Assembly: GCA_022703565.1 (NCBI GenBank)
Contig: JAKLDK010000003.1
Location: 1 to 54,603 of the forward strand
DNA length: 54,603 nucleotides
Origin: Candidatus Omnitrophota bacterium
GTDB taxonomy: Bacteria; Omnitrophota; Gorgyraeia; Zapsychrales; Zapsychraceae
Direction of reading: 5' to 3'
Positions 1 to 24,436 of the stretch are shown in pieces. The notes beneath the pieces are model-generated. The model was not told the origin of the DNA. It saw only the letters and a list, made by a program, of their open reading frames with translations, and did no database searches. The first letter of the stretch is position 1. Each line of letters opens with the position of its first letter. A program made the position numbers and the translations under genes.

Positions 1-3000
1 TATGACAAAAAAGAAATGTTAGAGTCAATTTCTTTTCATGAATATCTGGAAGTATTACGGGGTGAAGATCATTTGCAAGCCAATCGCGATACTAAAGCAA
101 TTGATGAGTTTTGCGATTCCTTAACAAAAGTTCAACAATTTATCTTTGAACTTGCTATTGAGGCAGTTTTTGAAGATACTCCAGAAATAGTTGTTGTCCC
201 TGAAAGCAATTTAGATTCATTCTTCCTTAACCTCTCGGCAAGACGGTCTTATGAATATAGTAGATATTCAAACAAAACCGAGAAAAGATCCACTCACGAA
301 CTCTTTCCGGGAGTTGAAATCTTAAGCCTGCATCCTTCGTGGAATTCTGATGATTTAACGGGAGAGGCTTATTGGTCAGAAGGTAATCAAGAAAATATGC
401 CAACGATTTATCCTTCTTCGGGTCAAAAGACAGTTGTAGATATGGAGGTAGCAAGAGAAAATGTTTTTGTTGTTTTCGAGATTGAGGAAATGGAACACCG
501 CAATGTTATATTTTTAAGGATTAAAAAAGAAGGCAAGCAGTATCTCGTAATTACCGACGAAGGTCGCTATGAGATAACCAGAAGTTCTACCGGATTGTTA
601 AATTGGATAGAACAGAATGGTTATGAAATTATAGAAGGGCACAATTATATCCTAGGTGGAAAGCACAATACTTTTGGGTGGCAGGGTATTGGAGAAGAGG
701 AAGCAATCATTATAGATGAAAGAGGACAGCTCAAGACGGCAAGAAAACCAAAAGAAGATGAAGCTGATAGTACTGATAACATAGAAGATGATGTTGATAA
801 TGATGATAATTCTCTAGACGCCGATAAAGACAAAGGAAATGATAATGTTGATCAAGATAATTTGAGAATTAAGAATTTGGGGATTACATTGTCGTTCCTT
901 CCTAACAGGTCAAATGTTTTTATCGGCCCAAGAGGATATGGATTTCATAATAACGGAAGATTTACTGTCCATTTCTGGGGTGAAGATAAAACAAAGGTTC
1001 AAGTGCCGGAAGAATATGCGAAAGACAAGAAGGAAGCTTTTGTAGGAATTACGGTAAGAGTTATCGAGAATCTTATTTACGAATATGGCCTGCAAGCTTC
1101 AGGGCGGATGATAACCGAAGAAGATTTTAACAGAATTTTAAAAGCTGTTTCTTCCAGCGCTTTATACGGGTATTTAGCTAAACGGTTTATTTATTATGAT
1201 CAGGAAGATTTAATAAACGAAATATTTTATGAACATGATAGGCAAAGGCAGCAAATCGATTGGAATGCTTATTGTGAGTTGTGGAAGAAAGTTTTGGCGG
1301 TATTTATTTCACCTGAAGTTATAAAAAATATTGAGGGGACAAGTAAATCAGCCTGGAAACCTGTAAATGAGATAAGAGGTTTATATTATGGATTTAGTTT
1401 GGCGGTGCGGATGCTTAGAAATTATGACCATTATTTTGCGGATTTCTTTACGTATTGGTTTAAGAGAATTAATAAATCAGGTGAGCTAAATAAAGTAGCG
1501 GCTAATTTTATTAAAGAAGCCAATTTTGCTTTTAATCCCGGGTATGGTTTTTACGACGGAATTGGCGACCATGATACGCATGCTTGTATACATTGGTATT
1601 TCCCGCAGTTCAGCAGATTTCCATTTATTTATTTGCAAAATAAAATTAGCCTTTTAAGAGTTGTGGGCGGATATGGACATAACCGGCACGAATTATGCAG
1701 TTATATATGCAGGGAAGGTTGGGAGCATTTAGTGGTATCAGAATTCTTTGTTGGCAAGAATGATAGAGGATATGGGCGTGAAATGGTTTTTGCTAGCGTT
1801 CAAAAATTGGTCGAGAAATATGGAATGGCGATTTTTACCAAGGTTGCTTTGCAGGCGGAAGAAGATACAGAGGAAGTATTTAAGTTTATTGGAGATAACA
1901 GCTACTTGTTTGAGGATGAAAATGATTTTTCTACTGAAATTGATAATTCAAAGATAAATTATATTACGGCTATTTTAAAAGCAGTTCGGGCTGATGACAA
2001 CAAAAGCCTTGACGGCATAATCAAATTATTAAAAAGTGAATATCTAGATTTGCTAATTGCAATGCTGGGAAAACGCGGTACTGAAACATTTTTCGCTTAT
2101 CTAGTGGAAAAACCAGAAAACAAGAAATTGTTGACTGAAATTGTTGATTTCTTGTTCGGTGAAGTAATAACAAGAGATTCGGCTTTAGCTTTAGGTGTGA
2201 TAAGAAATAAGACAAAAGATCAAGATTTGCGCAAAAGAATCGAGGATGATGCCGTAGCCCTGCTAAAGACAAAAGGATTAAAGACAGAAGCTTATATTTT
2301 ATCGGCAGATATAATCCGATTTATAGGTTTTGAACATAGTATAAGTCTTTGGCGAGACAACGCTAAAGCAGAGTCGGCAAATGAAGAAGAAACAAAGAGG
2401 TCTCTTTCTACTCTTTATCAATTGATTAACCTTAATGGTCTTGATTCCAACGCTTATTTAGCTCTTGCCCGGGCAATCGGACGATTTGGCGCTGTAGATT
2501 GGGAAGAGGGTTATGTTAATGCCAATACATTAGCTTGTGTTGAACGAGTTATTAAAATGCGGGGCTTGAATCCAATTGCATATATTGCCGCAATCGAGGC
2601 TGCTAAGGCAATTATTTCTACTAATCCACAGCTTGTCGGGACAAAAGAGATAAGGCTTATTATTGAGTATTTAAAGAGAGAAGAACTAAATTCCGGAATA
2701 TTGGCGGCAATAGTAGCTTTAATTGCAGAAATTAGAAAGCATAATTCAGTTCATTTTAATCAGATGTTAATCGATTTATTGGCTCAAGCGCTTATTCAAA
2801 AGAAGATTGTGGCCTGCGGGCAAGATGATGAAATCTTAAAAAGAAATTTTTTAGGTGATTATATTAATGGAGTATATAGCTCGTTTGTTAATGAAGTGAT
2901 AGAGAGCGATGAAACAGTTATTAAGGGAAATTTAGTTGTTATTTTAAATGTTATTGCTATGGCTAGAAATGATCTTTATGAAGCGATCTATAACAAATTA

Positions 3001-6000
3001 GAATTATTTTTAAGAAGTATGATGCCGGCTAATATTGTTTTATTGATGAGAGAAGAACAAGAATCCGGGATGATGATTAAGCTGATGGCAGATTTTTCCT
3101 CCAATAAAAAACTCGATGAGTATAAAGCAATACTAAATAATAGCGAAGAAATACAAAGCATAATTAATTTAATAGAAAATCTTAAGAAAGCTTTCATTTC
3201 TTCTCTGTCAATTAATATGTATGGGAGAATAACCGGCGGATGGGACGGCATCGAGAATATCCTGGGAATGGTAACAACTTATCCGTATGTTGTGTCATTC
3301 CTGATAAATAAAATCGTAATTACGATGCGTTTTATCAGCCAAGGCTTAGGGGAAGATACAGGATTTAGGGCGATGGCTAATGTCGAAGAGAGATTGCCGG
3401 GATTACGGGCCAAATTATTAGAAGTCTTAGACATTTATAGTTTGCCGCTCTTGCATAAAAGAAGATTAATAAAAGCACTTCCTTTGGGGACAAGAGACCA
3501 ATTAAATGACTTGAGAGAACAGGCAGTACAGCTTGTAACAGCTATTGTTGGAGGTGATTCCCGGGCGGGATTAGTGGGTGAAATCAGAGATAGAATCCAT
3601 AATAGGCCGTCTCCGCAAGATCTTATAATTTTAAAGCATTACAGGGAATTTGTTGAATCAGACGGAAAAGAACGTACTGGCTTGGAACGTTTGGGATATT
3701 CGATAGCCGAATCTGATGTGATTACTGATCAGTTTATAAAGCAGCGAATTCTGAGGTCTTGTGACCAGTTAATAGTAACTCTCGAGGAAGTTTATGGTGA
3801 AGGCAGTATTAATTCTATAACGCAAATATTTGAGGCTTGGAGCGGAAGCGTTAATCCTCCGGAATTATTATCCGAGAAGATACGGGATACTATTGAGAAT
3901 TGTAAGTTTGGGTTAGAAGAGCTGGAAAGTTTTATCGGCGCAAGATTAGCTTTAAATGAATATTTGATGAGCGAAACAGGAGAAAAAAGATATCAAAGCA
4001 TAAAGTTAGATAACAGGCTTGAGCTACTTTTCTATCGGACATTTAATGAGATTTTCTCGGACGAAGTAAGCATCTCAGCATATTCTTACTCGGACAAGAT
4101 TCGATTCTTAAGATTGCTATTAATGAATACTGCTGCTAACGGATATCAGACGCAAATGTTAAAAAGCATAGAAGGAGAATTGCAAACTTTAGAAAACGAA
4201 GCCAATCCTTTAAGGCTGTATTCAATATTAACCAGAATCGAACGAGTAATAAAAGAAGCTTCATCTGAATCAATTGACGATTACCAGGCATTTGCGGAAG
4301 GAATTGCAAAAGATACAAGAATAGAAGGCGATAATTATTTCTGGGTTGAAACATTCTCATCTAACATCTTCAGGTCGGATACGATTTATCTTTTATCCTT
4401 ATTCTTAAAGGAAATCAAAGAATGGGTTATGGAAGAAGCGAATGTGTCCGGTTGGCAAATTGTTGCCCCCGGTAAAATGGAAGGAAAGTTGCGGTATATA
4501 AAGAATGTAAATCAATTGAGCCGGGTAAAAGAAGATGAAATTATTGTAATTGAATCAATGCCGGATGTGCCTGTCGTTACAAATGTCGCCGGAATTATAA
4601 CTTTAAAAGAAGACACCCTTCTTAGCCATCCAGCAATAAGGGCCAGAAAAAATAGCATTCCATTCTTTGTTTGTTCTAATCTGGAAGTTTTAGAAAAGTA
4701 TTTTGGAAAATGTGTTTCAATTAGTTTAACCGAAGGGCAAATGCCAAAGATTCGAGTTGCGAAAGAACAAGTTGTCCAGCTAGAAAAGAAAAATGGAAAT
4801 GGTAATTCTGTCAAACTTCCGGAAGTTAACCTTGATTCCGTCCGGATATTGTTACCGGATGAATATGAAAAAGATACGGTAGGAAATAAAGCTTTCTTAC
4901 TTGAAGCATTAAACAAGTTGTTGCCGGAAAACATTTCTACCACAAAAAGTATTACGCTAAGTTTCGCTTTCTTTGAATATATATTGAGTCTTCCGCAGAA
5001 TGCGCAAGTTAAGAAAGAAATAAACGGTTTATTGCGGCAGGCAAGAATAAAAGGAGAGAAAAATCAAAGGAAGAAATTATTTAAGCTTAGAAAATTATTC
5101 TTAATGCTGGTTATTCCGGATGAAACTATTAAGGATATCAGCGATTCAATTATTGCCAATGTCGGAACAGGGCTTGTTTTCGTAAGATCGACAAGTAACG
5201 CGGAAGACTTAAAAGATTATGCCGGTGCCGGATTGTATGATTCGTTCCCGGCAATCGATCCGCAAGATTTAATTTCTTTAAGTTTCCATATTAAGCGTGT
5301 CTGGGCGTCGATTTGGACAGATAGGGCATTTTATGACAGAGAAGAAAATCATGTTGACCATAAAAAGGTGCGAATGGCTGTTTTGATTCAAGAAATGATT
5401 CCGTCGAGTTTTAGCTTTGTAGTTCATACTGAGAATCCGGCAAATGGAAGCGCTGATGAAATGATTATTGAAATAGTCCAGGGATTAGGCGAAGCTTTGG
5501 TAAGTGGAGCTGGTATTTACCAAGGCCTGGCACACCGGTATAGCTATAACAAGAAGACAAAAGAAATAAAGCGTCTAAGTTATGCTAATAAAAATAAGAG
5601 GCTAATTCTTGCCGGAGGTGATGTTATTAGAAAAGGAATAAATTATGCGGAAGATATTTTTACAATAAATGCTGAATTATCTGTGGGGATTGTAAGGGTT
5701 ATAGCCGAAGTCGCCCAAACAATTGAACAAAAATCTAATCAGGCCAGAGACATTGAAGGTTGCATTGTTCTTAAGGATATAAATAATCCGAGTGTATATT
5801 TTGTTCAGGATCGAGCGCAGCAAAAAGAGAATGGTAATGGCAACGGACAAATAGCCAATAATGCTAATGAAATAAGAAATGATGAATCTGATTCATCGGC
5901 TGAATCATATCCGGCGACACTCCCGGTAGATAATAAAAAAGAACGCAACGCATTGCCGCAAGAGAAATCCTTGATAGAGCAATCATTTGGCTTAAGCCAA

Positions 6001-9000
6001 GATGCTTTGGCGGAATTCAAGGTTATTACTGTTATTAATCCTAATCAAAGGATTGCGGTTCGAGTTGTTCGTAGGGATGTCAAGGCCTATTTATATGTTA
6101 ACCCGAATTTGCTACGCGCACCGCCGGAAGTATTAAGGGTTATTTTTGAAGGCCATGAATTATTCCACATCTTATATCCTAACGAATCCGAAGAACAAAT
6201 CCAAAAACGTACAATTAAGTTTCTAATTGATAATAATTTATTAGAAGGACATATCAAATATTTAAAACAAAATGATATTGGGCTGGTAGCACAACCGAAG
6301 TGGTTGGCTCTGCTTGAAGGCGAATACCGTGGCGGTAACCCTTTAACAATGGGAGAGGAAGATATTTCCGCCAGCCCAAGAAATTATGAGGAAAACTTGC
6401 AGGAAAGAATTTTGTCTAATTATTATTTGTCTTGGTCTTCACTTCTAATGTTTTTGACCGGTTTTATTGTTTTATTCTTTGGGCATGCAAATGAGGAACT
6501 TTTTCAAAAGAAAATATATTATGCGCCTGAAATTATAGTTAGTCATGCGACTAGTTTTGCCAGCAGTTTTGCCATCGCGTGGTTATTTAATTTATGTTTT
6601 ACGATAATGCTTCAGAAAGTGCATAAGTTCAAGACCAGTAAGCTTGTTGTGGCAAGTATTATTTCTGGATTAATAGGAGTTATATATACAACCTTACCTG
6701 AAACTATTATTCATTGGGGAGTACAGGACAAACAGGATATTTATGCTGGGATTTGTGGTGTAATTTTGTGGCTAATATTGAATGCTTTAAACGTGGTATT
6801 TGGAGTAAAGACGATAAAAAATAAAAATACGGAATTTGATTTTGGGCTGGAAGCTGAGTGTGAATCAGCTGGGATTGAAGGCGAGTACCGTGGCGGTAAC
6901 CCTTCAACAATGGGAGAGGAAGATATTTCCGCCAGCCCAATTATAAATTCAGACGATAATTTATTAGCTGAAAAACCAAAGGCTACGGAGGTAAAGAGTC
7001 CGACGGAAGGATTTAAAGCGCCATTGGATAATAAGTCTCCGGAAGAAATTGTTGCCGAACAGCGTCCTGTAGAAGATGAAGATATTGCTCAAGTTGATTT
7101 TGAATATTACACGAAAGTCGGGCTTCTGGCGATTAGTTTGTACAATAAAGAAATTGCCCTATCTGATGTTTCCGCTGATTTAAGAAAAGATGTCAAAACC
7201 CTTTGGGATTTGATGGAGGCTAACCGCAACAAGCATCCGGAATATGAAATGGAATATGGCCGGAACCGCGAACAGTCAGCGTTAATTTTGGGATATTATT
7301 TGATGAGTATGATTAAAGCCTTAGAAGTAGCCAAAAAGAATAAAAAAGTGCGAGTAGCTTTATCGGCGAGCTTGGGCTCGGGAAAAACTATTTCTGCCGG
7401 AGCTTTAGCCCGTTATATGTATGAGAAGTACAAAAGTGAGAATATATTAATGATAATGCCGAATGATAAAGTCGCCGATGCTTTTGGCAAGGACAGGTTT
7501 ATTTTTGGCGATGCTCCTCTAATTGAAATCGATGGTAGAAATGCGGATAAGCAAATGAGTCTGCCAGGGATTAAAATTGTTTCCTTTAGGGCGTTTCTGG
7601 AATTGGCGCGCTATCATCCGGAAATTGTGAAGAGCTCGTTCGGCATTATCGGCGAAATTGATTCTTTCTTGCGCGAGAACCCGCTTATTACCGGCCCGGC
7701 CCGCGACGGTGAGAAGGTTTTAGAGATTGCCGGAGAAGTCGCAAATAAGATTAGAAAAGGCGCGAGGCTTAAGACGTTGCCGGTTATTGAGCAGATGGCT
7801 TATGAGGTTGGACGGCGCAATGAAAGAATGCTCGTCCAAAGGGAAGCAATATTTGATTTGATTGACGGAATCATCGGCGATAACCGCGAAAACATTGTTT
7901 ATGATAGAAATCGTGGAGCGCAATTTAGGAAAGTAAGGCTGGATAGTGAGGCTTTATCTCCATACGAGAAATTCGAAATCGGAATAAGAGAATTAATCGC
8001 GGCCAAAATATTAATGCTGGAAAACGAAAAAGAGAATGAACGTATTGCCAATATCGTCTTGGATATTATTTGGAAAAGGTGGTCGCCGGAATTTGTTATC
8101 CAAAATGGTAAAAAGATTGCGCTATTATGCCGCAAGCAAAGCTATGTTCAGCCGGATACGATCCCCGGAGATTATATAACCGCTCAAATGCTCGTAATTG
8201 AAGCGGCCCGACGCATGAATAAACCGGTTGACCGGGCAGAATTTTTAAATGCCAGCCAGTTTAAGAGCGAAAATCCGACTCATGCGACCGATGCCTTAAG
8301 ATTGTTGAAAGGTATTGTATCCGACGGCGGTTCGGCCAAGTCGGAAAAGTTACAGTTAGCTCAATTGAATTTCCAGGTTAAAGAAATAGTCCCGGAAGAT
8401 GATTTAACAAAATTAGGCAAATTAGTCTTAGTTGAAGGTAAAAATACCGTTGAGATTTTGCAGGATGAATTGGCTTCAGATGATTTTAGGGCCGGTGGAT
8501 TGACTTTGGTTTCAGTAAGGCGGGCGCAATATGAAGAAATAATTAAAGGAATCACACCGGACGGATATTTTGTAGATGCTAATGGCAAAAGAAGAAGAAT
8601 AATCTTTGTCGGCGAGAAGGAACCGGGCAAGGTTAATAAAGAGCAATTGAAAATAGCGGAAGAACATATCTGTGATATCCAAAAAGATGGTTCAGCGGAA
8701 GAATTGGTTATAGTTTATTTAGGTTTATCGGCTGGGTCGAATATTGTTGAGAGGTTAAAAGATGCCAAAACACTTCCTTTAATAAATATTTTAAGAATTG
8801 GATCGATGGAACGGGCTGAGGTTAGCCAATTATTCGGCCGCGGCGACATTGCACTAATAAATAACGGCCGATTGAAGGTAAATTGCGCTAAGTCGGTTAT
8901 TGATATTGCAACCGATTCAAAGATTGCTTCGGCAGAAATAGAACGCGGCCGTGAGGCCTTGAATTTACCTGATGAAGATTCCATTTATGCTCAAAGAATT

Positions 9001-12000
9001 GTTTTTGAGGCGATTATGGACGGAATTCAAGCCTCGGCACAAATCGGAAAAGTCCTGCAAGTTTCCCGGCATTTAGGAAAAGAAGCAGAAGAACGATTGG
9101 AACAGGATATCCGTGATTATTTAAGAGAATTGGATGATGTTAGGGCCGTAAATGCTTTCGAGCTTGAGTTAGAAAAAGATGAAATAGATATTCCTCTTTA
9201 TTCCGGCGACGGAGTTAAAACTTATAAAAGAGAGTATCCCGACGGAAGGCTACAACCGGTATTTTTAAGCCAACGTGTCGACCAAGCTTTAGATTATAAA
9301 ACCAATGAAAGAACAACTACCGCGATTACAGCAAGGCTTATATACAAGCCTGAGCCGGAAGATCCAAATCAATTGACTTTTGTTAACGGTTATATTTTGT
9401 CGAATGTACAAATAGAAGACTTAAATTTAACCCAAGGCGATAATATTCAAGAACAAGGAATATTAATGCCGGTTTATGATAGTAAACAAGTTGGCCAGAT
9501 AAAGGCGGTATATTTTGAGGGTGAAATACACGCCGTGTTGGATGAAAAAATGTTTGTTAAGAAATTTGTTGATGAGTCTTTTGATACGAGCTTGTTTATC
9601 AGGCATCAGTGGTATTCAATAGAAGTTGACCGGTATAAGCCGGAAAATTTAGAACCCCGGCCGGCTGGTTATTTATTAGAAGGCCCGATGGAAGTATTTG
9701 TCCAGTTGGGAATTAAATTTAATGAAGATGATTTGGCTAGAAATGAATATGGCAAGTTGGTTGTCCGTAAACTTGTTTCGCTTGCCGAATATAAGTCTTT
9801 AGTTGAGTTTCCGTCGCAACGAGCCGAAGAGGGCATATTTAACGACGGTATTCTGGCTAACTTCCAGAATTACTTAAATGCTTCTATTATCGAAAAAGAT
9901 CAATGTGAACCAATAACTGATGAAGATATTCAGGAATTTACCCAGGCGATAGAGGGTATTAAAAGAAATTTAAGAAAAGTAATTCTAGGCAATAAAGCGA
10001 AGTTGATGGCCAGTTTAATCCGATTATTTAGCCACGAATATTTTGTCTTTACTACATTGGCTAAGTACAGAAAACTATTGGATGTGTTGGCTCCGATAGC
10101 TAAACTAAAAAGTCCGACGGATAGAGATAAAATGGATAAAGTATTAATCCGGGCTGTCAGATTGGCAATAGACGAAGGAATGAAGAAAGAGGATGTTGCT
10201 AAATTTTATTCTGATATGCAAAGGATTATCGATTTAGAGCCGGTTTTGTTAAGTGATGCGATTGAATTGGCATTAAAAGAATACGAACTATTTATTGAAT
10301 TAAATAACCGCCCGCAAATGCTAAAAGAATTGTCGCCTATTATTGAGGAAGGAGTTTTGAAAGATAGCAGTAAGCTGGAATTATTAATTAAAAACGCGAT
10401 TGATATTGTTACAAAAGAAGAAACTATTCTTAGGCGAGAGAACCAAGCGGCCTTACAAGAAGCTTATGAGCATGTTCTTAGGATTGAAAAGGTATTATTA
10501 GCCAAGCGGCCGAAAAAAGAAGAAGAATTGGCAAAATGGGTTGATGACTTGGAATCCATTCGTCAAACAAGAATGATTATTTCTGATATGAAGAATAAAG
10601 ACAATAGCCGGGTTAATTATTATTTCAATTCGTTAAGCAGCCGGGATATAAACCGCAAATTAGCAGAATTTATGAGTTATGTTATTGGAGAAAAGAATTT
10701 GGCACGTGCCAAAGGATTGTCAAAAGCGCAAAAATTGCATATCCAAAAAGCAATTGATTATTTTGACCGTCATAAGATTGCCCGAAACAAAGCGCTTTTA
10801 ATCAGAGTAATGCACGAATTGCGCGGAAGGTTTACGGCAGCCCACGGCGGAAGGTTCAAGAACCTGAAGAATTTCTTTGGCGGCCGCGATGTAAATATCT
10901 TTGATTTCTTAAGGCAAATTCTACAAGAAGAATTGGCTAAACGATTGCAAAATCGCCAAAGGATGTTCTTAAAATATACGATAATCCATGAGTCGCAAGG
11001 CTTAATTAAAATTGCCGCGCATGAAACACACGTCGAAGATTTAAAGAACTGGGAAAGCAACTTCAAGAGAGTTGAGAATAATGATGAAGGATTAGAAGCC
11101 GCAGTATTGACCGCGAGAGAAGCCTTGGCACATATTGCAATAGAGCCCAAAGATGAGTTTGGAATAAGCGATGATGATTTTATTAATCTTAATAGCGGGC
11201 TTGTGTATGGCGCAGAAGGTAATTACAAAGCAATATTTAGAGACGGGGTTTGGTCAAAGGTCGAGAATAACAGATTCCATTATGAATTGCCGCAGAAACA
11301 TGACGATATTGAAGTTATTGCTGACGGGAAAATTGATTCTGAAGGGCTGGTAACTGAAAGATTAACCGTCACAGGCTCAAGGGCGATATTGCAAAACGAA
11401 GAATCGTCAAAAGGAATTTTAAGAACGGATAATCATGCGGCAGTTTTAAAGGATATCGAGGTGATTAACTCTGCAAAGGATATTATCCGTGTAAGAAATG
11501 TTTACCGGGGAGATTTGAACAATATTTTAAGGCATTTAAAAGGTAGTGCAGCGGCGGATGAGCCGGAAATGATTGAAAATCTCGCGGATGAGACTGCCCG
11601 TAATTCTTTAGATGAATCAATGTTTGCATCTAACGGCCGTATTAAACCGGATTTAAAGGAAATTATTATCAATCAAGCCGAACGCAATATTGTTTCAATC
11701 CCTGACAGGAATATATTTGGAGAAATTACTCATTCTGTCCGTGAGGTTGTTTTGGTACCGATATTATCAGCTTGGGGTGGAGTTTATTCGACGATAAACA
11801 TTAATATTGTTCCATTTAATATTTTAAGAAACGATAAATCTGGATTGTTTAATGAAGAAGCCGGTAAAACAAAACACATAATTTCAGCCGAATTGGATAA
11901 ATTGTTATCCGGCATCAGTGATTATTTAAAGTATCTTTTTGATTTGTTAGCTAAGTTTATGAAATTGCTTTCTAACGCGATAGAGATGATGATTGAGGTT

Positions 12001-13092
12001 GCAAAGATGTTTAAGCTCGATCCGCCAATAATGGTATTCGTTATTCAAGAAGTTATCGCTCAAGCAAATCGTAATAAAATAATTTATATCCGAGAAGAAT
12101 TGATGCCGGTTCTGGCCAAGGATTTGAATATGTTTGGACAAGAGGTAACTGAGGTTAACACAAAGCCAATTGGTTCGGTCGTTGCCATATCGACTTCAAC
12201 AAATGGAGCACCGACGGATGGAACTTGGCGGAACTATTATGAAGGTAAATTAAGAAATCCGGATAACGCTTTATATGGGCAAATATTCGAGCAGTTAGTA
12301 AATAACTTTGTTAATGCCAAAGCTGATTCTGATTGGGCGGTATTTGCTGCAAGCGAGAGAAAGAATCCTGATTCTGTTTGGAATGGAGTGTTTACTGAAG
12401 TTGATAGGAGATTAACAAAATCTAATGTTGGCAATAGCGGCGCAATTCCACCCAAGGACGATGCCCATATTAATGCCGGCGCAATACCTCCGTCAGCCAA
12501 ATTAACGATAACAAATGATTTAGTTTTTGTTCAAGTTTATCCGATATATCCCATAGCAATATTAAATAACTTTAATCCAAATGATGATGAAAGAAATAGG
12601 CGTTCGTCGGTTGTCGCGATAAAAACTGAAGTAAACGGCGCGCCTTTAGATGGAACGTGGAAAACCTATTATGAAGGGTATTTAAATAATCCGGATAAGG
12701 CTTTATATGGACAGATATTTGAAAGTTTGGTGAATAACTTTATTAACGCCGCACCGCAATCTGACTGGGCAGTATTTGCGGGAGAAGAAAGACAAAAGGC
12801 AAGTTCCGTTTGGCAAGTTGTATTTAGTGAGGTTGATAAGAGATTGATGGCCGACTCAATTAAAGGATATTTTAAATATCTAGATGAAGCTGCTCTCGCT
12901 AATCCATCTGCGGAAGTATTGCCTTTGTCTGATAGTTTTCAATTGATTGAATTAACCGCAATGGGAAAGTTTACCGTCGATGTATCTAATATCGGGATTT
13001 TTAACCTGCCGGCCATTGCTAATTCGGCACCTGTTCCAGCCTTAGTATTTTCACCTCTTAAATATCATCCGCTTGAGGAAGTAGCAAAATAG
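1..13092 (+). CDS. Giant multidomain protein, at least 4,358 aa; 5' end probably truncated by the window
   Basis: Uninterrupted frame-1 ORF ending at TAG 13090-13092. The frame is also open from nt 1 to the first ATG at nt 16, and no Shine-Dalgarno is visible before nt 16, so the true start may lie upstream of the window. It contains several recognisable modules, listed as separate features. Confidence 0.9.
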   Translation, partial: YDKKEMLESISFHEYLEVLRGEDHLQANRDTKAIDEFCDSLTKVQQFIFELAIEAVFEDTPEIVVVPESNLDSFFLNLSARRSYEYSRYSNKTEKRSTHELFPGVEILSLHPSWNSDDLTGEAYWSEGNQENMPTIYPSSGQKTVVDMEVARENVFVVFEIEEMEHRNVIFLRIKKEGKQYLVITDEGRYEITRSSTGLLNWIEQNGYEIIEGHNYILGGKHNTFGWQGIGEEEAIIIDERGQLKTARKPKEDEADSTDNIEDDVDNDDNSLDADKDKGNDNVDQDNLRIKNLGITLSFLPNRSNVFIGPRGYGFHNNGRFTVHFWGEDKTKVQVPEEYAKDKKEAFVGITVRVIENLIYEYGLQASGRMITEEDFNRILKAVSSSALYGYLAKRFIYYDQEDLINEIFYEHDRQRQQIDWNAYCELWKKVLAVFISPEVIKNIEGTSKSAWKPVNEIRGLYYGFSLAVRMLRNYDHYFADFFTYWFKRINKSGELNKVAANFIKEANFAFNPGYGFYDGIGDHDTHACIHWYFPQFSRFPFIYLQNKISLLRVVGGYGHNRHELCSYICREGWEHLVVSEFFVGKNDRGYGREMVFASVQKLVEKYGMAIFTKVALQAEEDTEEVFKFIGDNSYLFEDENDFSTEIDNSKINYITAILKAVRADDNKSLDGIIKLLKSEYLDLLIAMLGKRGTETFFAYLVEKPENKKLLTEIVDFLFGEVITRDSALALGVIRNKTKDQDLRKRIEDDAVALLKTKGLKTEAYILSADIIRFIGFEHSISLWRDNAKAESANEEETKRSLSTLYQLINLNGLDSNAYLALARAIGRFGAVDWEEGYVNANTLACVERVIKMRGLNPIAYIAAIEAAKAIISTNPQLVGTKEIRLIIEYLKREELNSGILAAIVALIAEIRKHNSVHFNQMLIDLLAQALIQKKIVACGQDDEILKRNFLGDYINGVYSSFVNEVIESDETVIKGNLVVILNVIAMARNDLYEAIYNKLELFLRSMMPANIVLLMREEQESGMMIKLMADFSSNKKLDEYKAILNNSEEIQSIINLIENLKKAFISSLSINMYGRITGGWDGIENILGMVTTYPYVVSFLINKIVITMRFISQGLGEDTGFRAMANVEERLPGLRAKLLEVLDIYSLPLLHKRRLIKALPLGTRDQLNDLREQAVQLVTAIVGGDSRAGLVGEIRDRIHNRPSPQDLIILKHYREFVESDGKERTGLERLGYSIAESDVITDQFIKQRILRSCDQLIVTLEEVYGEGSINSITQIFEAWSGSVNPPELLSEKIRDTIENCKFGLEELESFIGARLALNEYLMSETGEKRYQSIKLDNRLELLFYRTFNEIFSDEVSISAYSYSDKIRFLRLLLMNTAANGYQTQMLKSIEGELQTLENEANPLRLYSILTRIERVIKEASSESIDDYQAFAEGIAKDTRIEGDNYFWVETFSSNIFRSDTIYLLSLFLKEIKEWVMEEANVSGWQIVAPGKMEGKLRYIKNVNQLSRVKEDEIIVIESMPDVPVVTNVAGIITLKEDTLLSHPAIRARKNSIPFFVCSNLEVLEKYFGKCVSISLTEGQMPKIRVAKEQVVQLEKKNGNGNSVKLPEVNLDSVRILLPDEYEKDTVGNKAFLLEALNKLLPENISTTKSITLSFAFFEYILSLPQNAQVKKEINGLLRQARIKGEKNQRKKLFKLRKLFLMLVIPDETIKDISDSIIANVGTGLVFVRSTSNAEDLKDYAGAGLYDSFPAIDPQDLISLSFHIKRVWASIWTDRAFYDREENHVDHKKVRMAVLIQEMIPSSFSFVVHTENPANGSADEMIIEIVQGLGEALVSGAGIYQGLAHRYSYNKKTKEIKRLSYANKNKRLILAGGDVIRKGINYAEDIFTINAELSVGIVRVIAEVAQTIEQKSNQARDIEGCIVLKDINNPSVYFVQDRAQQKENGNGNGQIANNANEIRNDESDSSAESYPATLPVDNKKERNALPQEKSLIEQSFGLSQDALAEFKVITVINPNQRIAVRVVRRDVKAYLYVNPNLLRAPPEVLRVIFEGHELFHILYPNESEEQIQKRTIKFLIDNNLLEGHIKYLKQNDIGLVAQPKWLALLEGEYRGGNPLTMGEEDISASPRNYEENLQERILSNYYLSWSSLLMFLTGFIVLFFGHANEELFQKKIYYAPEIIVSHATSFASSFAIAWLFNLCFTIMLQKVHKFKTSKLVVASIISGLIGVIYTTLPETIIHWGVQDKQDIYAGICGVILWLILNALNVVFGVKTIKNKNTEFDFGLEAECESAGIEGEYRGGNPSTMGEEDISASPIINSDDNLLAEKPKATEVKSPTEGFKAPLDNKSPEEIVAEQRPVEDEDIAQVDFEYYTKVGLLAISLYNKEIALSDVSADLRKDVKTLWDLMEANRNKHPEYEMEYGRNREQSALILGYYLMSMIKALEVAKKNKKVRVALSASLGSGKTISAGALARYMYEKYKSENILMIMPNDKVADAFGKDRFIFGDAPLIEIDGRNADKQMSLPGIKIVSFRAFLELARYHPEIVKSSFGIIGEIDSFLRENPLITGPARDGEKVLEIAGEVANKIRKGARLKTLPVIEQMAYEVGRRNERMLVQREAIFDLIDGIIGDNRENIVYDRNRGAQFRKVRLDSEALSPYEKFEIGIRELIAAKILMLENEKENERIANIVLDIIWKRWSPEFVIQNGKKIALLCRKQSYVQPDTIPGDYITAQMLVIEAARRMNKPVDRAEFLNASQFKSENPTHATDALRLLKGIVSDGGSAKSEKLQLAQLNFQVKEIVPEDDLTKLGKLVLVEGKNTVEILQDELASDDFRAGGLTLVSVRRAQYEEIIKGITPDGYFVDANGKRRRIIFVGEKEPGKVNKEQLKIAEEHICDIQKDGSAEELVIVYLGLSAGSNIVERLKDAKTLPLINILRIGSMERAEVSQLFGRGDIALINNGRLKVNCAKSVIDIATDSKIASAEIERGREALNLPDEDSIYAQRIVFEAIMDGIQASAQIGKVLQVSRHLGKEAEERLEQDIRDYLRELDDVRAVNAFELELEKDEIDIPLYSGDGVKTYKREYPDGRLQPVFLSQRVDQALDYKTNERTTTAITARLIYKPEPEDPNQLTFVNGYILSNVQIEDLNLTQGDNIQEQGILMPVYDSKQVGQIKAVYFEGEIHAVLDEKMFVKKFVDESFDTSLFIRHQWYSIEVDRYKPENLEPRPAGYLLEGPMEVFVQLGIKFNEDDLARNEYGKLVVRKLVSLAEYKSLVEFPSQRAEEGIFNDGILANFQNYLNASIIEKDQCEPITDEDIQEFTQAIEGIKRNLRKVILGNKAKLMASLIRLFSHEYFVFTTLAKYRKLLDVLAPIAKLKSPTDRDKMDKVLIRAVRLAIDEGMKKEDVAKFYSDMQRIIDLEPVLLSDAIELALKEYELFIELNNRPQMLKELSPIIEEGVLKDSSKLELLIKNAIDIVTKEETILRRENQAALQEAYEHVLRIEKVLLAKRPKKEEELAKWVDDLESIRQTRMIISDMKNKDNSRVNYYFNSLSSRDINRKLAEFMSYVIGEKNLARAKGLSKAQKLHIQKAIDYFDRHKIARNKALLIRVMHELRGRFTAAHGGRFKNLKNFFGGRDVNIFDFLRQILQEELAKRLQNRQRMFLKYTIIHESQGLIKIAAHETHVEDLKNWESNFKRVENNDEGLEAAVLTAREALAHIAIEPKDEFGISDDDFINLNSGLVYGAEGNYKAIFRDGVWSKVENNRFHYELPQKHDDIEVIADGKIDSEGLVTERLTVTGSRAILQNEESSKGILRTDNHAAVLKDIEVINSAKDIIRVRNVYRGDLNNILRHLKGSAAADEPEMIENLADETARNSLDESMFASNGRIKPDLKEIIINQAERNIVSIPDRNIFGEITHSVREVVLVPILSAWGGVYSTININIVPFNILRNDKSGLFNEEAGKTKHIISAELDKLLSGISDYLKYLFDLLAKFMKLLSNAIEMMIEVAKMFKLDPPIMVFVIQEVIAQANRNKIIYIREELMPVLAKDLNMFGQEVTEVNTKPIGSVVAISTSTNGAPTDGTWRNYYEGKLRNPDNALYGQIFEQLVNNFVNAKADSDWAVFAASERKNPDSVWNGVFTEVDRRLTKSNVGNSGAIPPKDDAHINAGAIPPSAKLTITNDLVFVQVYPIYPIAILNNFNPNDDERNRRSSVVAIKTEVNGAPLDGTWKTYYEGYLNNPDKALYGQIFESLVNNFINAAPQSDWAVFAGEERQKASSVWQVVFSEVDKRLMADSIKGYFKYLDEAALANPSAEVLPLSDSFQLIELTAMGKFTVDVSNIGIFNLPAIANSAPVPALVFSPLKYHPLEEVAK
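4300..5820 (+). other. Alpha-glucan/phosphoglucan water dikinase-like (PEP-utilising family) phosphotransferase module inside the giant ORF
   Basis: A swivel phospho-His segment WQIVAPGKMEGKL...ESMPDVPVVTNVAGIITLKEDTLLSHPAIRARKNSIPFFVC (candidate catalytic His codon 4627-4629) is followed by a PPDK_N-type nucleotide-binding domain. That domain reads GNKAFLLEAL ... VRSTSNAEDLKDYAGAGLYDSFPAI ... VWASIWTDRAFYDR ... MAVLIQEMIPSSFSFVVHTENP ... VQGLGEALVSG ... DIEGCIV...YFVQDRAQ. His domain before nucleotide domain is the order I recall for plant GWD/PWD, not for PpsA or PPDK. Confidence 0.65.
6154..6168 (+). other. HExxH zincin-like motif (SprT/WLM/DUF45-style context) inside the giant ORF
   Basis: The translation reads YLYVNPNLLRAPPEVLRVIFEGHELFHILYPNESEEQ. 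HELFH is preceded by a hydrophobic strand-helix pattern typical of minimal zincins. This is motif-level evidence only. Confidence 0.3.
6314..6379 (+). repeat. 66-nt direct repeat, copy 1 (encodes EGEYRGGNPLTMGEEDISASP)
   Basis: 64 of 66 nt are identical to 6875-6940. The offset is 561 nt (187 codons), so the two copies are in frame. Confidence 0.95.
6408..6830 (+). other. Block of four predicted transmembrane helices in the middle of the giant ORF
   Basis: Four hydrophobic stretches of 18-25 aa are present: LSWSSLLMFLTGFIVLFFG, TSFASSFAIAWLFNLCFTIML, LVVASIISGLIGVIYTTL and IYAGICGVILWLILNALNVVFGV. I saw no comparable hydrophobic block elsewhere in the ORF (by-eye reading). Confidence 0.6.
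6875..6940 (+). repeat. 66-nt direct repeat, copy 2 (encodes EGEYRGGNPSTMGEEDISASP)
   Basis: Near-identical to 6314-6379. Together the two copies bracket the four-TM block. Confidence 0.95.
7267..8880 (+). other. Degenerate SecA-like DEAD-motor ATPase module (NBD1, PPXD-like insert, NBD2) inside the giant ORF
   Basis: Several segments align by eye to SecA:
- Walker A LGSGKT (7375-7389) followed by ILMIMPNDKVA, compare SecA VVTVNDYLA.
- IIGEIDSFLRENPLITGPA, compare SecA DEVDSILIDEARTPLIISG.
- EFVIQNGKKIALL...ITAQMLVIEAARR, compare dYiV.dg...GLHQAvEAKE.
- GIVSDGGSAKSEKLQLAQLNFQVKEIVP, compare GMTGTAkTEeeEF..IY.l.VvvIP.
- SMERAEVSQLFGRGDIAL, compare tERhEsrRIDnQLrGRsGRQGD. Confidence 0.5.
12172..12860 (+). 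repeat. Duplicated C-terminal domain of about 85 aa (two copies, roughly 60 percent aa identity)
   Basis: Copy 1 (about 12172-12425) reads GSVVAISTSTNGAPTDGTWRNYYEGKLRNPDNALYGQIFEQLVNNFVNAKADSDWAVFAASERKNPDSVWNGVFTEVDRRL. Copy 2 (about 12601-12856) reads SSVVAIKTEVNGAPLDGTWKTYYEGYLNNPDKALYGQIFESLVNNFINAAPQSDWAVFAGEERQKASSVWQVVFSEVDKRL. Confidence 0.9.
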
Positions 13093-13109
13093 GGACAGAC
13101 ACCAATTAT
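13086..13109. repeat. Left arm of a 24-nt inverted repeat (AAAATAGGGACAGACACCAATTAT)
   Basis: Its reverse complement occurs at 13680-13703 with one mismatch. This arm overlaps the TAG stop of the giant ORF. Confidence 0.9.
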
Positions 13110-13134
13110 TTTAATGTAGTCTCTTCATGTTTTT

Positions 13135-13143
13135 TGATATAAT
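13135..13143 (+). promoter_or_regulatory. Extended -10 promoter element TGATATAAT
   Basis: It matches TGnTATAAT and lies 10 nt upstream of ATG 13153, with no Shine-Dalgarno between. This would give a leaderless or near-leaderless transcript. The same 9-mer occurs at 22342-22350. Confidence 0.35.
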
Positions 13144-13152
13144 CAAAAAGCT

Positions 13153-13596
13153 ATGACTAAAAAAATATTATTCTTTGTTTTATTTTTTGCGATTCTTTTG
13201 CAAAATGTTTTTGCTCAAGGGATAAAAGTTGATATGTCCCGTTATAAAGAAGTTTGGGTTGAACGTGACCCGATAAAAGGAATTAATCCTTGGGAGGCAT
13301 TCTGGCTTAAGAAGAATAAAAAGAGGAGGATTACGCAATTTCCTCGCAACAATCCTTTATTCATTGAGTCGGCTGAGGCAGAAATAATAAAAAGTTATTA
13401 CCTTGAGCAAGGATTGCAGGTGATGAGAGTGGATTCCTGGTCATATAAACAGCGTTATGGCGAACAAAAAGAGACTTGCCCAAAAGATGATTGCCCTGCC
13501 GGATACACTTTATTTTTACTTATTCCTCGCACGCAACTTAATAAGGCCCAACAATTAGGATTTAAAGAATTCAATATTCTTGAGCGCAATTTCTAA
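13153..13596 (+). CDS. Small secreted protein of unknown function (147 aa)
   Basis: ORF with an N-terminal signal peptide MTKKILFFVLFFAILLQNVFA|QG. I recognise no family. The gene is flanked by the 24-nt inverted repeats. Confidence 0.6.
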   Translation: MTKKILFFVLFFAILLQNVFAQGIKVDMSRYKEVWVERDPIKGINPWEAFWLKKNKKRRITQFPRNNPLFIESAEAEIIKSYYLEQGLQVMRVDSWSYKQRYGEQKETCPKDDCPAGYTLFLLIPRTQLNKAQQLGFKEFNILERNF

Positions 13597-18061: not shown

Positions 18062-18349
18062 AGGACGTAGTTATAGCATAAAAGGATAAAAGAGGCAAGG
18101 GAGCAGCAATAAAATAGGGGCAGACATCATTTGTTGAATAAATAAAAGAGAAAAAATAAGAAATCAAGGATACTCGGGACACGTCTTGATTGGCTTCATG
18201 GAACATGTCCCATTGCCTGCCAGAGATTCTATAAAGAAAACGTTTTCTCAAAAACGCCAGAGCCTATGTGTTATCTTTATATTGTATTTTATACTTTAAC
18301 TATAATAAGGCCACGGTACGAAGATCTTTTAATCCTAAGGGAGGTTATT

Positions 18350-20359
18350 ATGAATATCGTAATAGATAGAGGATATTGGGGAAAATTATTGATATTATTC
18401 TTTGTTTCTTCTTTATTTATATGTCCTGCCGATTCTGCTGCCAAGACATTTGAATTATCGAAAAAAAAGGTGCTTTCTAAAGAAGAAGCCGTAATTAGAG
18501 AAGAATGCGGAAAAGTTATAACCGGGGTTGATAAGTTTGGGCAAACTCGGCCGATGATAATGACGTCTGAACACGAAAAAGGGTATTGCAAAAACTATGT
18601 TTTTTTTGATCCGAATGAAGGCCTGCCTGACCAACAAGCGGTTGCTAGCCAAGGAGAAAAAGATGGCGCTTCGACCCAGGCAGATTATTTTGATATTGTC
18701 GCTCGGTTCTCACCGGTTTGGTATCATGATACGGATGATTCTGATTATTCTGCGGAACATTTAATAAACTTTGATTTTGACGGAGATTGGAATGGGCTTA
18801 ACAATTGGGAGAATGAGCCGAACTATCCCCATTACGCAACTATTTACTATTCTGTTGTTGAAACAGCAACGCATTATTTTATTATTTATGTTGATTTTCA
18901 TCCCCGCGATTGGGCGAATACCTGTACTTTTGGAGATTGCCATGAAAATGATTTAGAAGGAGTTCAAGTGGTTGTCCGAAAAAATGATGGCCCTTATTTG
19001 GGGGCAATTGAGTATATCTCAACACAATCGCACGGGGACTTGTTGTTTTATTCCACCAATTCTTTTCCTCGGGAAATAAACGATCAAAGTTTTACCATGC
19101 GGCCAAAAATTTATGTCGAGGCAAAAGGGCATGGCGTACGTGTTGATGAAAGTAAAACTGGGCACTCAATGCCTTATGAATACCAGGGAAATTTCCCCGG
19201 AGGAGATGGAATGGTTTATCGCTACAAAGGGTCCTCGGACTTTATTCCTCAGAATGAAGGAAACGATCGTGATGTCAGCTATGCATTACTTCCAATAGAA
19301 GACGCTTTTTGGTCAAGGCGTTCGGGTGTAAATGATACTTTTACCAGCCATTTCGCGTATAACGGAGCCAGAGGTTATAGTTTTGAGCAGCCGATTTCCG
19401 GTGCTTTTAAAGGAGATACCTATGGTAATGATAAGGCTAATCCGCCTTGGGCTTGGAACGATTCCGGATATGGCAATAAAGGCGATTGGGCGATAGATCC
19501 GGCTTATTCATTTTATCTGAAAGCAAATCCAGCCCAACCATTTGCTTTGGATTATATCAATAATTTTTATTTGGCAGAATTAAACGAAAAAGGCGAGCTA
19601 TTTTCAGTCGGCTATGGTAATTCCTCGACGTATTTCCCCTATATTCTATCAATGGGGGCAACCGGAAGTAATCCGCAATGTGAAGATAATAATTACAATA
19701 AGTGGTGTGTTGATGGCGGCAATCATTTTCCTGAAAACATGATCGGTTGTTATGAAATTGCTGACGATTATGGCAGCCAGGATTGCTTTTTTGGTTCGCC
19801 AGAGCATACCAATTATATTGATTATAAATGGAACAAAGAAGAATTTCCTTATAGCCGGGAGCAGATTTATGAAATTGTTATTAGGACAATGACAAATAAG
19901 AATATTTGTTCCGGGTACCCGGGATTTGAAGATGATGACGGTTGGGAATACGGAGAGAATAATATTTTAACGCTGGTGCTTGACGGGAATAATAATTTCC
20001 GACGATACCAGTGCGAAACAGGCGGAGATCACGGGCCTTTTGTCCTACAGGTTTTCTTTGATGCAAATGGCCTGCTGGATTTTATTAAAGTTCTGGCCGG
20101 AGACCATGAAGACGAAGGGGCATTTGAAATCGTCGGAGTTGATGTGCAATTGCGTGGGTTATGTTCGGATGGGACAGTTTTTGAAGAATGCAATGAAAAT
20201 GGTAAATATTGTAATAATATGCTGAATTTAATTGACGATTGCGAAAGATGCGGATGCCCGGCTGGAAAATATTGTTCAGTGGCAACAGGTGCGTGTTTAA
20301 AGCCAGTTGGGGGTCCAAAGTATGAATTTTACGAACAGGCTGGGGGTTCAGGTATTTAA
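18350..20359 (+). CDS. Secreted protein with a possible Vps62/NPP1-like core and a Cys-rich C-terminus
   Basis: I prefer the start at ATG 18350, which is preceded by AGGGAGG; the tracked ORF begins earlier at 18266. The signal or anchor reads MNIVIDRGYWGKLLILFFVSSLFICPADSAA. The core YATIYYSVVETATHYFIIYVDFHPRDW...GDCHENDLEGVQVVVRK...STQSHG resembles the H-x-x-D-x-E pattern of the Vps62/DUF946 and NPP1 families. The last 50 aa contain 10 Cys. Confidence 0.6.
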   Translation: MNIVIDRGYWGKLLILFFVSSLFICPADSAAKTFELSKKKVLSKEEAVIREECGKVITGVDKFGQTRPMIMTSEHEKGYCKNYVFFDPNEGLPDQQAVASQGEKDGASTQADYFDIVARFSPVWYHDTDDSDYSAEHLINFDFDGDWNGLNNWENEPNYPHYATIYYSVVETATHYFIIYVDFHPRDWANTCTFGDCHENDLEGVQVVVRKNDGPYLGAIEYISTQSHGDLLFYSTNSFPREINDQSFTMRPKIYVEAKGHGVRVDESKTGHSMPYEYQGNFPGGDGMVYRYKGSSDFIPQNEGNDRDVSYALLPIEDAFWSRRSGVNDTFTSHFAYNGARGYSFEQPISGAFKGDTYGNDKANPPWAWNDSGYGNKGDWAIDPAYSFYLKANPAQPFALDYINNFYLAELNEKGELFSVGYGNSSTYFPYILSMGATGSNPQCEDNNYNKWCVDGGNHFPENMIGCYEIADDYGSQDCFFGSPEHTNYIDYKWNKEEFPYSREQIYEIVIRTMTNKNICSGYPGFEDDDGWEYGENNILTLVLDGNNNFRRYQCETGGDHGPFVLQVFFDANGLLDFIKVLAGDHEDEGAFEIVGVDVQLRGLCSDGTVFEECNENGKYCNNMLNLIDDCERCGCPAGKYCSVATGACLKPVGGPKYEFYEQAGGSGI

Positions 20360-20532
20360 TTAAAGATAATAAAGAGATCTAAAGAGAAATTTGTCATGCG
20401 GATGTGAATTAATTGATAGCTTGTTTTTTGATGTTTAGCCTTGGACTGCTTGGCAATATGCTTTTACAAATGTTATACTTTCTCCTGGTGTGTTTTAAAT
20501 CCGGCACTCTTATAAAAAAAGGGGGTACGTAA

Positions 20533-21579: not shown

Positions 21580-21652
21580 TTAGGAAACTCCGACTAGACA
21601 AGGGACATAAACCGTAAAAAATATTAGTTCGTGCCCCAAATTCCGCGGAATA

Positions 21653-21725
21653 GTTTAAAGTTTAATGTAAAAAGTTTAAACTAAAAACTCTTTGATCTTT
21701 AAACGTTAAACTTTCAACTGTAAAC
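21653..21725 (+). repeat. Array of tandem heptamers related to GTTTAAN / NTTAAAC
   Basis: One run reads GTTTAAA GTTTAAT GTAAAAA GTTTAAA CTAAAAA. A second run reads TTTAAAC GTTAAAC TTTCAAC TGTAAAC (21698-21725). The array lies 50-120 nt upstream of the promoter at 21775. Confidence 0.8.
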
Positions 21726-21774
21726 TTCTTTTTAAGCCATTCCGCCTTTATTTTTATATCTTCAATATAAACTA

Positions 21775-21804
21775 TTGACAAAAAAAGAGTTAGAGAGTTA
21801 TAAT
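21775..21804 (+). promoter_or_regulatory. Sigma-70-type promoter (TTGACA, 18 nt, TATAAT)
   Basis: Both hexamers are consensus: -35 at 21775-21780 and -10 at 21799-21804. An AAGGAG Shine-Dalgarno and ATG 21830 lie downstream. Confidence 0.7.
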
Positions 21805-21829
21805 AGCACTTCAGAAAAAGGAGATTGCT

Positions 21830-22072
21830 ATGAACAAACTTTCTAAAGAAGAATTGTTAAAAAATCCTAAGGTTGTTGAAGAAATCAATCGCCACAAATG
21901 GTTTAAGAGTGAAAAAGCCGGACGTGACATTGGTTTTGAAGCAGCTTGCGAAGACTGGATCAAGAACTTTTCTCAGAATTGGTTAAACAAGAATTGTTCT
22001 GATAAAAAGCCAGCCGGAGCATGTTGCACCGGAACAACTGCTAAGAAAAGAAGCGCAAAAGCTTATCTATAA
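21830..22072 (+). CDS. Small protein (80 aa) with an HKW-x-SEKAG-D-G motif and a basic, Cys-containing tail
   Basis: It has a strong promoter, an SD and a terminator. The motif INRHKWFKSEKAGRDIGFEAACEDWI resembles what I associate with DUF4032-type domains, recalled from memory and not verified. Confidence 0.65.
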   Translation: MNKLSKEELLKNPKVVEEINRHKWFKSEKAGRDIGFEAACEDWIKNFSQNWLNKNCSDKKPAGACCTGTTAKKRSAKAYL

Positions 22073-22350: not shown

Positions 22351-22373
22351 ATCGCCATAAACGGAGGAGAAAG

Positions 22374-24428: not shown

Positions 24429-24436
24429 AGTTATTT

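Follow-up and report, generated by a model that had tools for sequence, protein, structure and literature searches.

A mosaic giant gene of an Omnitrophota bacterium, probably encoding a membrane-tethered protein with a dikinase module and a SecA-like core

Giant proteins of the Omnitrophota ('Archaeovorins' and related proteins) have been described in two preprints. According to the first, the giants have numerous transmembrane (TM) regions, their SecA DEAD domains are mostly divergent and lack scaffold and wing, the TM anchors lie near the C-terminus and are followed by the SecA-related domains, C39 peptidase domains are found near the N-termini, and PPDK_N belongs to the top 20 domains. Genes of type II secretion systems (T2SS) or pili are located upstream and PilZ genes downstream, and surface attachment or predation is offered as a hypothesis for the role of these proteins (West-Roberts 2023, 10.1101/2023.11.21.568195). 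The second preprint catalogues 916 long proteins with a cluster of SecA_DEAD architecture, reports 46% with TM helices and without signal peptide, for which a membrane-anchored and mostly cytoplasmic reading is favoured, and finds modules of sugar metabolism to be common on giants (Nielsen & Lui 2026, 10.64898/2026.06.07.730766). Here we analyse the gene that fills the first 13 kb of a stretch of 54,603 nucleotides (the window) from a Candidatus Omnitrophota bacterium (assembly GCA_022703565.1, contig JAKLDK010000003.1, positions 1 to 54,603 of the forward strand). Its open reading frame (ORF) probably represents all, or the C-terminal part of at least 4,363 residues, of an Omnitrophota mosaic giant that is tethered to the membrane with cytoplasmic flanks and that combines a dikinase of the glucan-water-dikinase (GWD) type with a SecA-derived core (Table 1).

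The protein has several features in common with the described giants, namely the host type, the long mosaic ORF, a PPDK_N domain, mostly unannotated sequence, and a TM anchor in front of a divergent SecA-like domain near the C-terminus. In addition, a relative of its core, the locus L085, has the N-terminal C39 domain and the upstream T2SS-like genes that are reported for the class. However, the visible 4,363 residues have to be compared to more than 30,000 residues in the 2023 set and to mostly at least 10,000 residues in the 2026 set, there is one TM block instead of many, and the motor is too divergent for the Pfam SecA_DEAD model. An extension of 850 residues behind the motor and a duplicated terminal domain were not met in the accessible descriptions of the class. 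The Archaeovorin subtype is distinguished further by domains for which the ORF, searched in ten overlapping tiles up to an E-value of 5, does not have any Pfam match (HEAT, TPR, and glycosyltransferase). By its domain content the ORF is best placed within the known class of Omnitrophota giant proteins and not among the strict 'Archaeovorins'. An earlier note, made from the sequence alone, had proposed the ORF as candidate for a novel system whose combination of modules is known from no characterised protein. The second part of this proposal holds, and none of the members of the class has been characterised. The first part does not, because TM regions, divergent SecA-like domains, and PPDK_N are already described for the class in the two preprints.

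Relatives of the C-terminal part were identified by an exhaustive HMMER search with residues 2364-3560 against 1.84 billion cluster representatives, which resulted in a core family of only seven proteins or clusters (among 1.84e9 representatives). When the whole ORF, the motor, or an alignment of seven sequences was used as query in a word-indexed search, no match was obtained. This result is probably artefactual because the exhaustive search did find relatives, and the candidate lists were probably saturated. The surroundings of mutSL in 80 other genomes, among them the closest Omnitrophota metagenome-assembled genome (MAG), do not contain any relative of the giant. The conserved unit comprises about residues 2318-3900, and the proteins P0002 and P0004 and the loci L085 and L086 are colinear with the window protein over residues 2318-3890.

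The ortholog is encoded in GCA_015232535.1, where it is represented by two contig-limited fragments of one gene, P0001 (2,864 aa) and P0003 (1,297 aa), which sum up to about 4,300 residues if P0001 starts at its Met-2. P0001 is 64% identical over residues 2318-2836 of the window protein, and P0003 is 42% identical over residues 2964-4231. Behind the C-terminal fragment lie a homolog of the window's small ORF that follows the giant gene (46% identity) and then mutL (53%), so that the ortholog is found at the same chromosomal position as the gene in the window. Upstream, the ortholog has the regulatory and kinase domains of AceK (E of about 1e-60) in place of the dikinase. The upstream enzyme modules are exchanged between the lineages (dikinase here, AceK in the ortholog), with the core being kept. 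After the stop codon of the ortholog, locus L082 (3995-10204; contig 53 of GCA_015232535.1) contains a 307-aa ORF with more copies of the terminal domain and also a NosD/beta-helix protein of 1,696 aa, neither of which is present at that position in the window.

The same genome encodes a paralog, P0002 (L083 69-21900; contig 21 of GCA_015232535.1), that has more than 7,277 residues and runs off its contig. Its core is located at residues 1654-3208, and the 4,047 residues after the core do not have any Pfam match at E <= 1e-3. In front of the core P0002 has about 1,600 residues rich in Lys, Glu, and Arg, which are probably coiled-coil. P0004 is a called gene of 1,666 aa within a 5.2-kb metagenome contig and comprises the core and little else. 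L085 (JGI 3300010429; P0006 and the next ORF) combines the N-terminal Peptidase_C39 domain and two upstream T2SSF genes with the same core at its end. Its 5,871-aa protein (L085 9273-30703) ends inside the motor, and the core resumes in the next ORF from nucleotide 26921; this break may be genuine or else due to a sequencing error. L086 (JGI Ga0209417_1000025) consists of the last 13.6 kb of a 418-kb metagenome contig with a frame open over nucleotides 1-13569. Its 4,522 residues are cut at both ends and contain tandem SecA-like motors (residues 990-1564 and 2261-3040) as well as the extension. The N-terminal part of L086 is rich in Gly and Ala and hydrophobic.

Frame 1 of the forward strand is free of stop codons from nucleotide 1 to 13089 and ends with a stop codon at 13090-13092 (4,363 codons), so the uninterrupted frame over the first 13 kb that the earlier note had described is there and the protein has at least 4,363 residues. 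The frame is open at the edge of the window, and its first ATG, at nucleotide 16, is preceded by five codons (YDKKE). Many genes of the window do not have a Shine-Dalgarno (SD) sequence, and therefore the SD context is uninformative on this ATG as start. At this base composition (37% G+C) a random codon is a stop codon with a probability of 0.069, so that a run of 4,363 codons would be free of stops by chance with a probability of about 1e-136. A codon model was derived from 14 housekeeping genes of the same window. It gives frame 1 a positive log-likelihood ratio in all 14 consecutive 900-nt tiles, and frames 2 and 3 have negative scores and 15-40 stops per tile. Hidden frameshifts or stops, which the earlier note had raised as a concern, or a compositional seam were not seen in any of the tiles. 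The giant ORF is coding over its whole length in the codon usage of the host, and the first 13 kb are a genuine chromosomal gene.

The alternative would be an in-frame chimeric assembly of unrelated genes, or a pseudogene undergoing decay, without expression as a single product. Such an origin could be suspected because the evidence on the assembly is indirect and does not come from reads, because no collection searched contains a relative of residues 1-1958, because the core of L085 is divided over two ORFs, and because the stop in the ortholog precedes further copies of the terminal domain. However, the improbability of such a stop-free frame and the host-like coding signal in every tile speak against this, and independent assemblies are colinear with residues 1959-2125 and 2318-4231. 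We consider an artefact to be very unlikely.

The N-terminal region of about 1,480 residues does not have any sequence match in Pfam and NCBIfam nor, for its first 1,450 residues, in the PDB, and the first 495 residues have no relatives in the collections of genome and metagenome contigs. About 1,400 residues of this region had been read as helical repeat-like in the earlier note. This could not be verified, as no internal repeats were found by self-BLAST, and what supports it is the helix-favouring composition of residues 600-1400. The acidic patch at nucleotides 745-870 that had been noticed in the same region is confirmed.

The dikinase module has two matches in Pfam. GWD1_pHisD (PF22973) is found with 40.7 bits (cutoff 27; E 2e-10), and PPDK_N (PF01326) is matched with an E-value of 1e-35 over positions 3-320 of the 328 positions of the profile. 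The catalytic His is H1543 in LLSHPAIRAR, in which LSH aligns to TSH of the His domain of phosphoenolpyruvate (PEP) synthase. Among the solved structures PEP synthase 8a8e is the best relative of the module (1.4e-24). However, the His domain follows the ATP-grasp domain in 8a8e and precedes it in the giant protein. The PEP/pyruvate-binding TIM-barrel domain (PEP-utilizers_C) has no Pfam match in the ORF, and the NCBIfam models of PEP synthase match in their N-terminal third only, where they score about 130 and thus far below their cutoffs of about 600-740. The order of the domains, the conservation of the His, and the missing PEP/pyruvate domain all point to the arrangement of a glucan-water dikinase, in agreement with the GWD-like phosphotransferase module that the earlier note had put forward.

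With GWD and phosphoglucan-water dikinase (PWD) the giant protein shares the position of the His domain N-terminal to the ATP-grasp domain and the lack of a PEP/pyruvate TIM barrel. The phosphohistidine swivel domain (LSH...RAR) and PPDK_N are common to the dikinase family in general, including PEP synthase and rifampin phosphotransferase. Unlike GWD and PWD, the giant protein has no detected CBM45, CBM20, or other glucan-binding domain, and its dikinase is only one part of a presumably membrane-tethered giant protein in a bacterium. By analogy, the beta-phosphate of ATP would be transferred to His1543 of the dikinase and from there to a substrate other than pyruvate. A glycan-like substrate is plausible given that sugar-metabolism modules are common on Omnitrophota giants.

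On the N-terminal flank the dikinase is followed by a small conserved domain with the sole HExxH motif of the ORF (HELFH, residues 2052-2056, nucleotides 6154-6168), so that the motif reported earlier is real and present in a single copy. It is HEYFH in the ortholog P0001, and the corresponding motif is HELGS or HEAIG in the paralogous proteins. HExxH is the motif of zincin metallopeptidases, and the domain does not have any sequence match in Pfam or the PDB. Behind it a hydropathy scan detects four hydrophobic helices at residues 2143-2269 and none elsewhere in the ORF, which agrees with the four-helix membrane block of the earlier note. Because the ATP-using dikinase and the likewise ATP-using motor flank an even number of TM helices, both flanks are expected to be cytoplasmic. 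The four helices, arranged as two helical hairpins, would then tether the polypeptide to the inner membrane.

This topology has to be weighed against a surface-exposed effector for attachment or predation, which would be mostly exported, possibly by its own SecA-like motor, and would bind or degrade the envelopes of prey. Such a role has been proposed for Omnitrophota giants, for which pilus and T2SS genes are reported nearby (West-Roberts 2023, 10.1101/2023.11.21.568195). The family member L085 with its C39 peptidase domain at the N-terminus and T2SSF genes upstream would fit as well, there are pseudopilin genes about 11 kb downstream in the window, and the N-terminus of the protein may lie beyond the window edge. 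However, neither a signal peptide nor an adhesin, dockerin, lectin, beta-helix, or glycoside-hydrolase domain was found in the visible 4,363 residues, no PilZ domain was detected downstream, and ATP-requiring modules, the dikinase and the motor, are located on either side of the four helices. Two ATP-dependent modules around an even number of TM helices favour a cytoplasmic tethered protein over a surface adhesin. The surface, attachment, or predatory role that the earlier note had taken from the literature on giant genes is thus unsupported for the visible part, and we regard an exported effector as improbable.

The TM block is enclosed by two direct repeats of 73 nucleotides, which the earlier note had not mentioned. 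They are 93% identical, lie 561 nucleotides apart (187 codons, in frame), and both encode EGEYRGGNP(L/S)TMGEEDISASP. Two copies are present in the window where none would be expected by chance. A dispersed element was considered and rejected, as the window has no third copy and the fetched loci have none at all. The ortholog has one copy of the repeat-encoded linker motif and no TM block between the HExxH domain and the motor, and this is the layout that recombination between the 73-nt repeats would leave. The derived state may be that of either lineage. As the product of such a recombination would be an in-frame protein that lacks the anchor, it could be imagined that recombination switches between a membrane-tethered and a soluble form, and at the same time that the core (about residues 2318-3900) is an autonomous, so far undescribed machine to which lineage-specific ATP-dependent regulatory enzymes are attached, and not a device for self-export. 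Both proposals taken together are rather doubtful.

The core that occupies the C-terminal flank, and that would define the family, starts with a two-lobed ATPase motor. The motor (residues 2400-3060) was modelled with AlphaFold2 (AF2) based on an alignment of five relatives, resulting in a model of medium confidence (predicted local distance difference test, pLDDT, 67; predicted TM-score, pTM, 0.44) that has long helices after the second lobe. In the Foldseek search against the PDB the ten best fold matches are all SecA or SecA2 (1.5e-9 to 1.1e-6), and DinG, XPD, RIG-I, and UvrB rank after SecA (1e-6 to 1e-3). Walker A is GSGKT at residue 2459. Motif II, GEIDSFLRENPLITG, is found at residue 2551, 92 residues after Walker A without any insertion between them, and an insertion of about 210 residues separates it from DGGSAKSE (residue 2775), a motif at the position of GMTGTA that reads GMTATAES in the relative P0005. 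The second lobe contributes IVYLGLSAGSNI (residue 2904) and QLFGRGD (residue 2943). As the SecA counterparts we take DEVDSILIDEARTPLIISG for motif II and GMTGTADTE for DGGSAKSE, and the insertion after motif II is presumably located where SecA has its preprotein-binding domain (PPXD). The first Asp of Walker B is replaced by Gly in the giant protein, P0001, and P0006 (GEID) and is kept in P0004 (DEID) and P0005 (DETD), with the Glu and the final Asp being invariant. Judged by the model, the ATPase fold is best described as that of SecA. The degenerate SecA-like ATPase of the earlier note is recovered in this sense, as SecA takes ranks one to ten by fold, remains undetected by sequence, and the Walker-B Asp is a Gly.

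The motor could instead be a nucleic-acid helicase or translocase of superfamily 2 (SF2) and of the ResIII, DinG, or XPD type, and the protein would then act on nucleic acids (DNA or RNA), for instance in defence or in repair near mutSL. The sole Pfam match of the motor is indeed a weak one to ResIII, restricted to the P-loop (22.8 bits; cutoff 22.5), DinG, XPD, and RIG-I come next after SecA in the fold search (1e-6 to 1e-4), and the gene adjoins mutL and mutS in two genomes. However, the first ten ranks belong to SecA without exception. In DinG and XPD an iron-sulfur (FeS) domain separates Walker A from motif II, where the giant protein has no insertion; its insertion sits between motifs II and III, as in SecA. 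The motif strings, too, resemble those of SecA (DEVDSILIDEARTPLIISG and GMTGTA), and PADLOC gives no match. A helicase is therefore distinctly unlikely in our opinion.

What the motor has in common with SecA are two RecA-like lobes, the insertion after motif II, and similar motif strings. It differs in being only about 12% identical, in being missed by the sequence searches of Pfam and the PDB, in the Gly at the first Walker-B Asp, and in having no clear counterpart of the wing or the C-terminal domains in the model. Furthermore, it forms part of a giant protein, in which it is covalently joined to the TM anchor and to a large unrelated extension. The SecA-derived core probably acts on a polypeptide at the membrane, by binding, gripping, or threading it. 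Given the Gly in Walker B, the turnover of ATP may be slow or regulatory.

The motor continues into the conserved extension of about 850 residues, which carries invariant His, Arg, and Glu residues and which would form the family-defining core together with the motor. Across five sequences the invariant residues form two groups, H3605, R3608, G3609, R3610, A3613, A3614, H3615, and G3617, and T3660, H3663, E3664, Q3666, G3667, and H3674, which can be summarised by the signature H-x2-RGR-x2-AAH-x-G ... HE-x-QG ... H. The AF2 model of the extension (pLDDT 64) does not have any fold match in the PDB or BFVD, and only recurrent non-significant matches to kinase C-lobes were obtained. At the very C-terminus two copies of a further domain follow, which are about 62% identical in protein and 71% in DNA. 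The duplication of a terminal domain had been recognised in the earlier note and stands. The size of 85 residues given there does not, as the domain comprises about 100 residues. In Pfam it has only a weak sub-threshold match to DMFA2_C, and there is no sequence match in the PDB.

A number of points weigh against the preferred reading of a membrane-tethered mosaic giant with cytoplasmic flanks, dikinase, and SecA-derived core. The 5' end of the gene is outside the window, and a signal peptide or TM helices encoded upstream could alter the topology. Residues 1-1958 are not corroborated by any second assembly. The functions of the members of the core family are predictions, as is the substrate of the dikinase, and neither CBM45 and CBM20 nor any other carbohydrate-binding or glycosyltransferase domain has a Pfam match in the ORF. 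The fold matches to SecA have low TM-scores (0.30-0.36), as expected for a multi-domain model of medium confidence, and it is this model, together with the reading of the motifs, from which the SecA assignment is made. SecA_DEAD (PF07517) is not matched by six family members in Pfam up to E = 10, no SecA is found in the PDB by phmmer or with the profile of seven sequences, and an hhalign comparison of the motor to an approximate SecA sequence with eIF4A as control was not significant. Finally, no PilZ domain was detected downstream, where it is reported for other giants, and the region upstream, where secretion genes would be expected, is outside the window.

Table 1. Coordinates of the giant gene, its predicted modules, and the adjoining small ORF in the window.
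Feature	Nucleotides	Residues	Strand	Basis or remark
Giant ORF	1..13092	>=4,363 aa	+	open at nt 1, first ATG nt 16, stop 13090-13092
N-terminal region	1..4449	~1,480 aa	+	composition favours helices from aa 600 onward
Acidic low-complexity patch	745..870	249-290	+	translation
Phosphohistidine swivel domain, GWD type (predicted)	4450..4743	1484-1581	+	PF22973 GWD1_pHisD
PPDK_N ATP-grasp nucleotide-binding domain (predicted)	4876..5853	1626-1951	+	PF01326
Small HExxH domain	5875..6375	1959-2125	+	38% identical to P0001 aa 2014-2220
Direct repeat copy 1	6307..6379		+	encodes EGEYRGGNPLTMGEEDISASP, immediately 5' of TM block
Four-TM-helix block	6427..6807	2143-2269	+	hydropathy scan
Direct repeat copy 2	6868..6940		+	561 nt (187 codons) behind copy 1 and in frame with it; 93% identity
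SecA-like two-lobed ATPase motor (predicted)	7198..9180		+	AF2 model, PDB fold search, motifs
Conserved motor extension	9181..11700	3061-3900 (~850 aa)	+	colinear with P0002, P0003, P0004, P0005, L085, L086
Terminal domain copy 1	12124..12429	4042-4143	+	also in ortholog
Terminal domain copy 2	12562..12861	4188-4287	+	tandem duplicate of copy 1
Small ORF	13153..13596	147 aa	+	between giant gene and mutL; syntenic in ortholog

The surroundings of the gene are those of a bacterial chromosome. Its neighbours are housekeeping genes (mutL, mutS, accA, rlmN, and the biotin operon), of which mutL and mutS are convergent with the giant gene, and no phage- or plasmid-like features were found around it. 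A defence system was rejected as candidate because of the missing PADLOC match. The MutS protein of the window shares 60% identity with its counterpart in 'Candidatus Omnitrophota bacterium MAG246' and at most 46% with that of every other phylum, so that, by this one marker, the gene is most probably encoded in an Omnitrophota genome. The small ORF between the giant gene and mutL is 46% identical to L082 10684-11154, which also precedes mutL. It does not have any match in Pfam or to another family, so no PilZ domain was detected downstream of the giant gene.

The window also holds glycosyltransferase genes, TPR genes, two tRNAs, and a cluster of ORFs of unknown function with two pseudopilins. 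This cluster (18266-28852, forward strand) is a run of ORFs with scant annotation that may be an accessory cluster of a pilus or a T2SS-like system. ORFs of 697, 485, and 637 aa in this run do not have a Pfam match, and a 348-aa ORF has a weak TPR match. The pseudopilins, which have N-terminal methylation motifs, are encoded at 23907-24428 and 25888-26415 on the forward strand, about 11 kb downstream of the giant gene, and a MORN-repeat protein is encoded at 24416-25858 on the same strand. Further downstream (36760-42440, forward strand) there are three tandem proteins of 551-557 aa with C-terminal TPR repeats. One of these has a PMT_2 glycosyltransferase domain, and a GT2 gene (38423-39112) follows the first. 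The biotin gene cluster (43153-48888) ends with a 674-aa ORF (46864-48888, forward strand) that comprises a dethiobiotin-synthase-like AAA_26 domain and a class-III aminotransferase and is an apparent BioD-BioA fusion. Three successive ORFs of 364, 433, and 641 aa on the reverse strand (49914-54376) do not have any Pfam match.

The Omnitrophota giants are among the largest predicted proteins known. The analysis refines a known class of proteins, and what is new are the rare conserved core, the GWD-type reading of PPDK_N, the argument on the topology, and the TM cassette that is flanked by repeats. The cytoplasmic and tethered reading runs counter to the prevailing idea of surface effectors. 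In addition, the PPDK_N domains on Omnitrophota giants may be phosphotransferases of the GWD type and not enzymes interconverting pyruvate and PEP. The comparatively small member described here isolates a core that is found again both in much larger relatives and in a called gene of 1,666 aa with little else attached, which makes this core tractable for biochemistry and structure determination.

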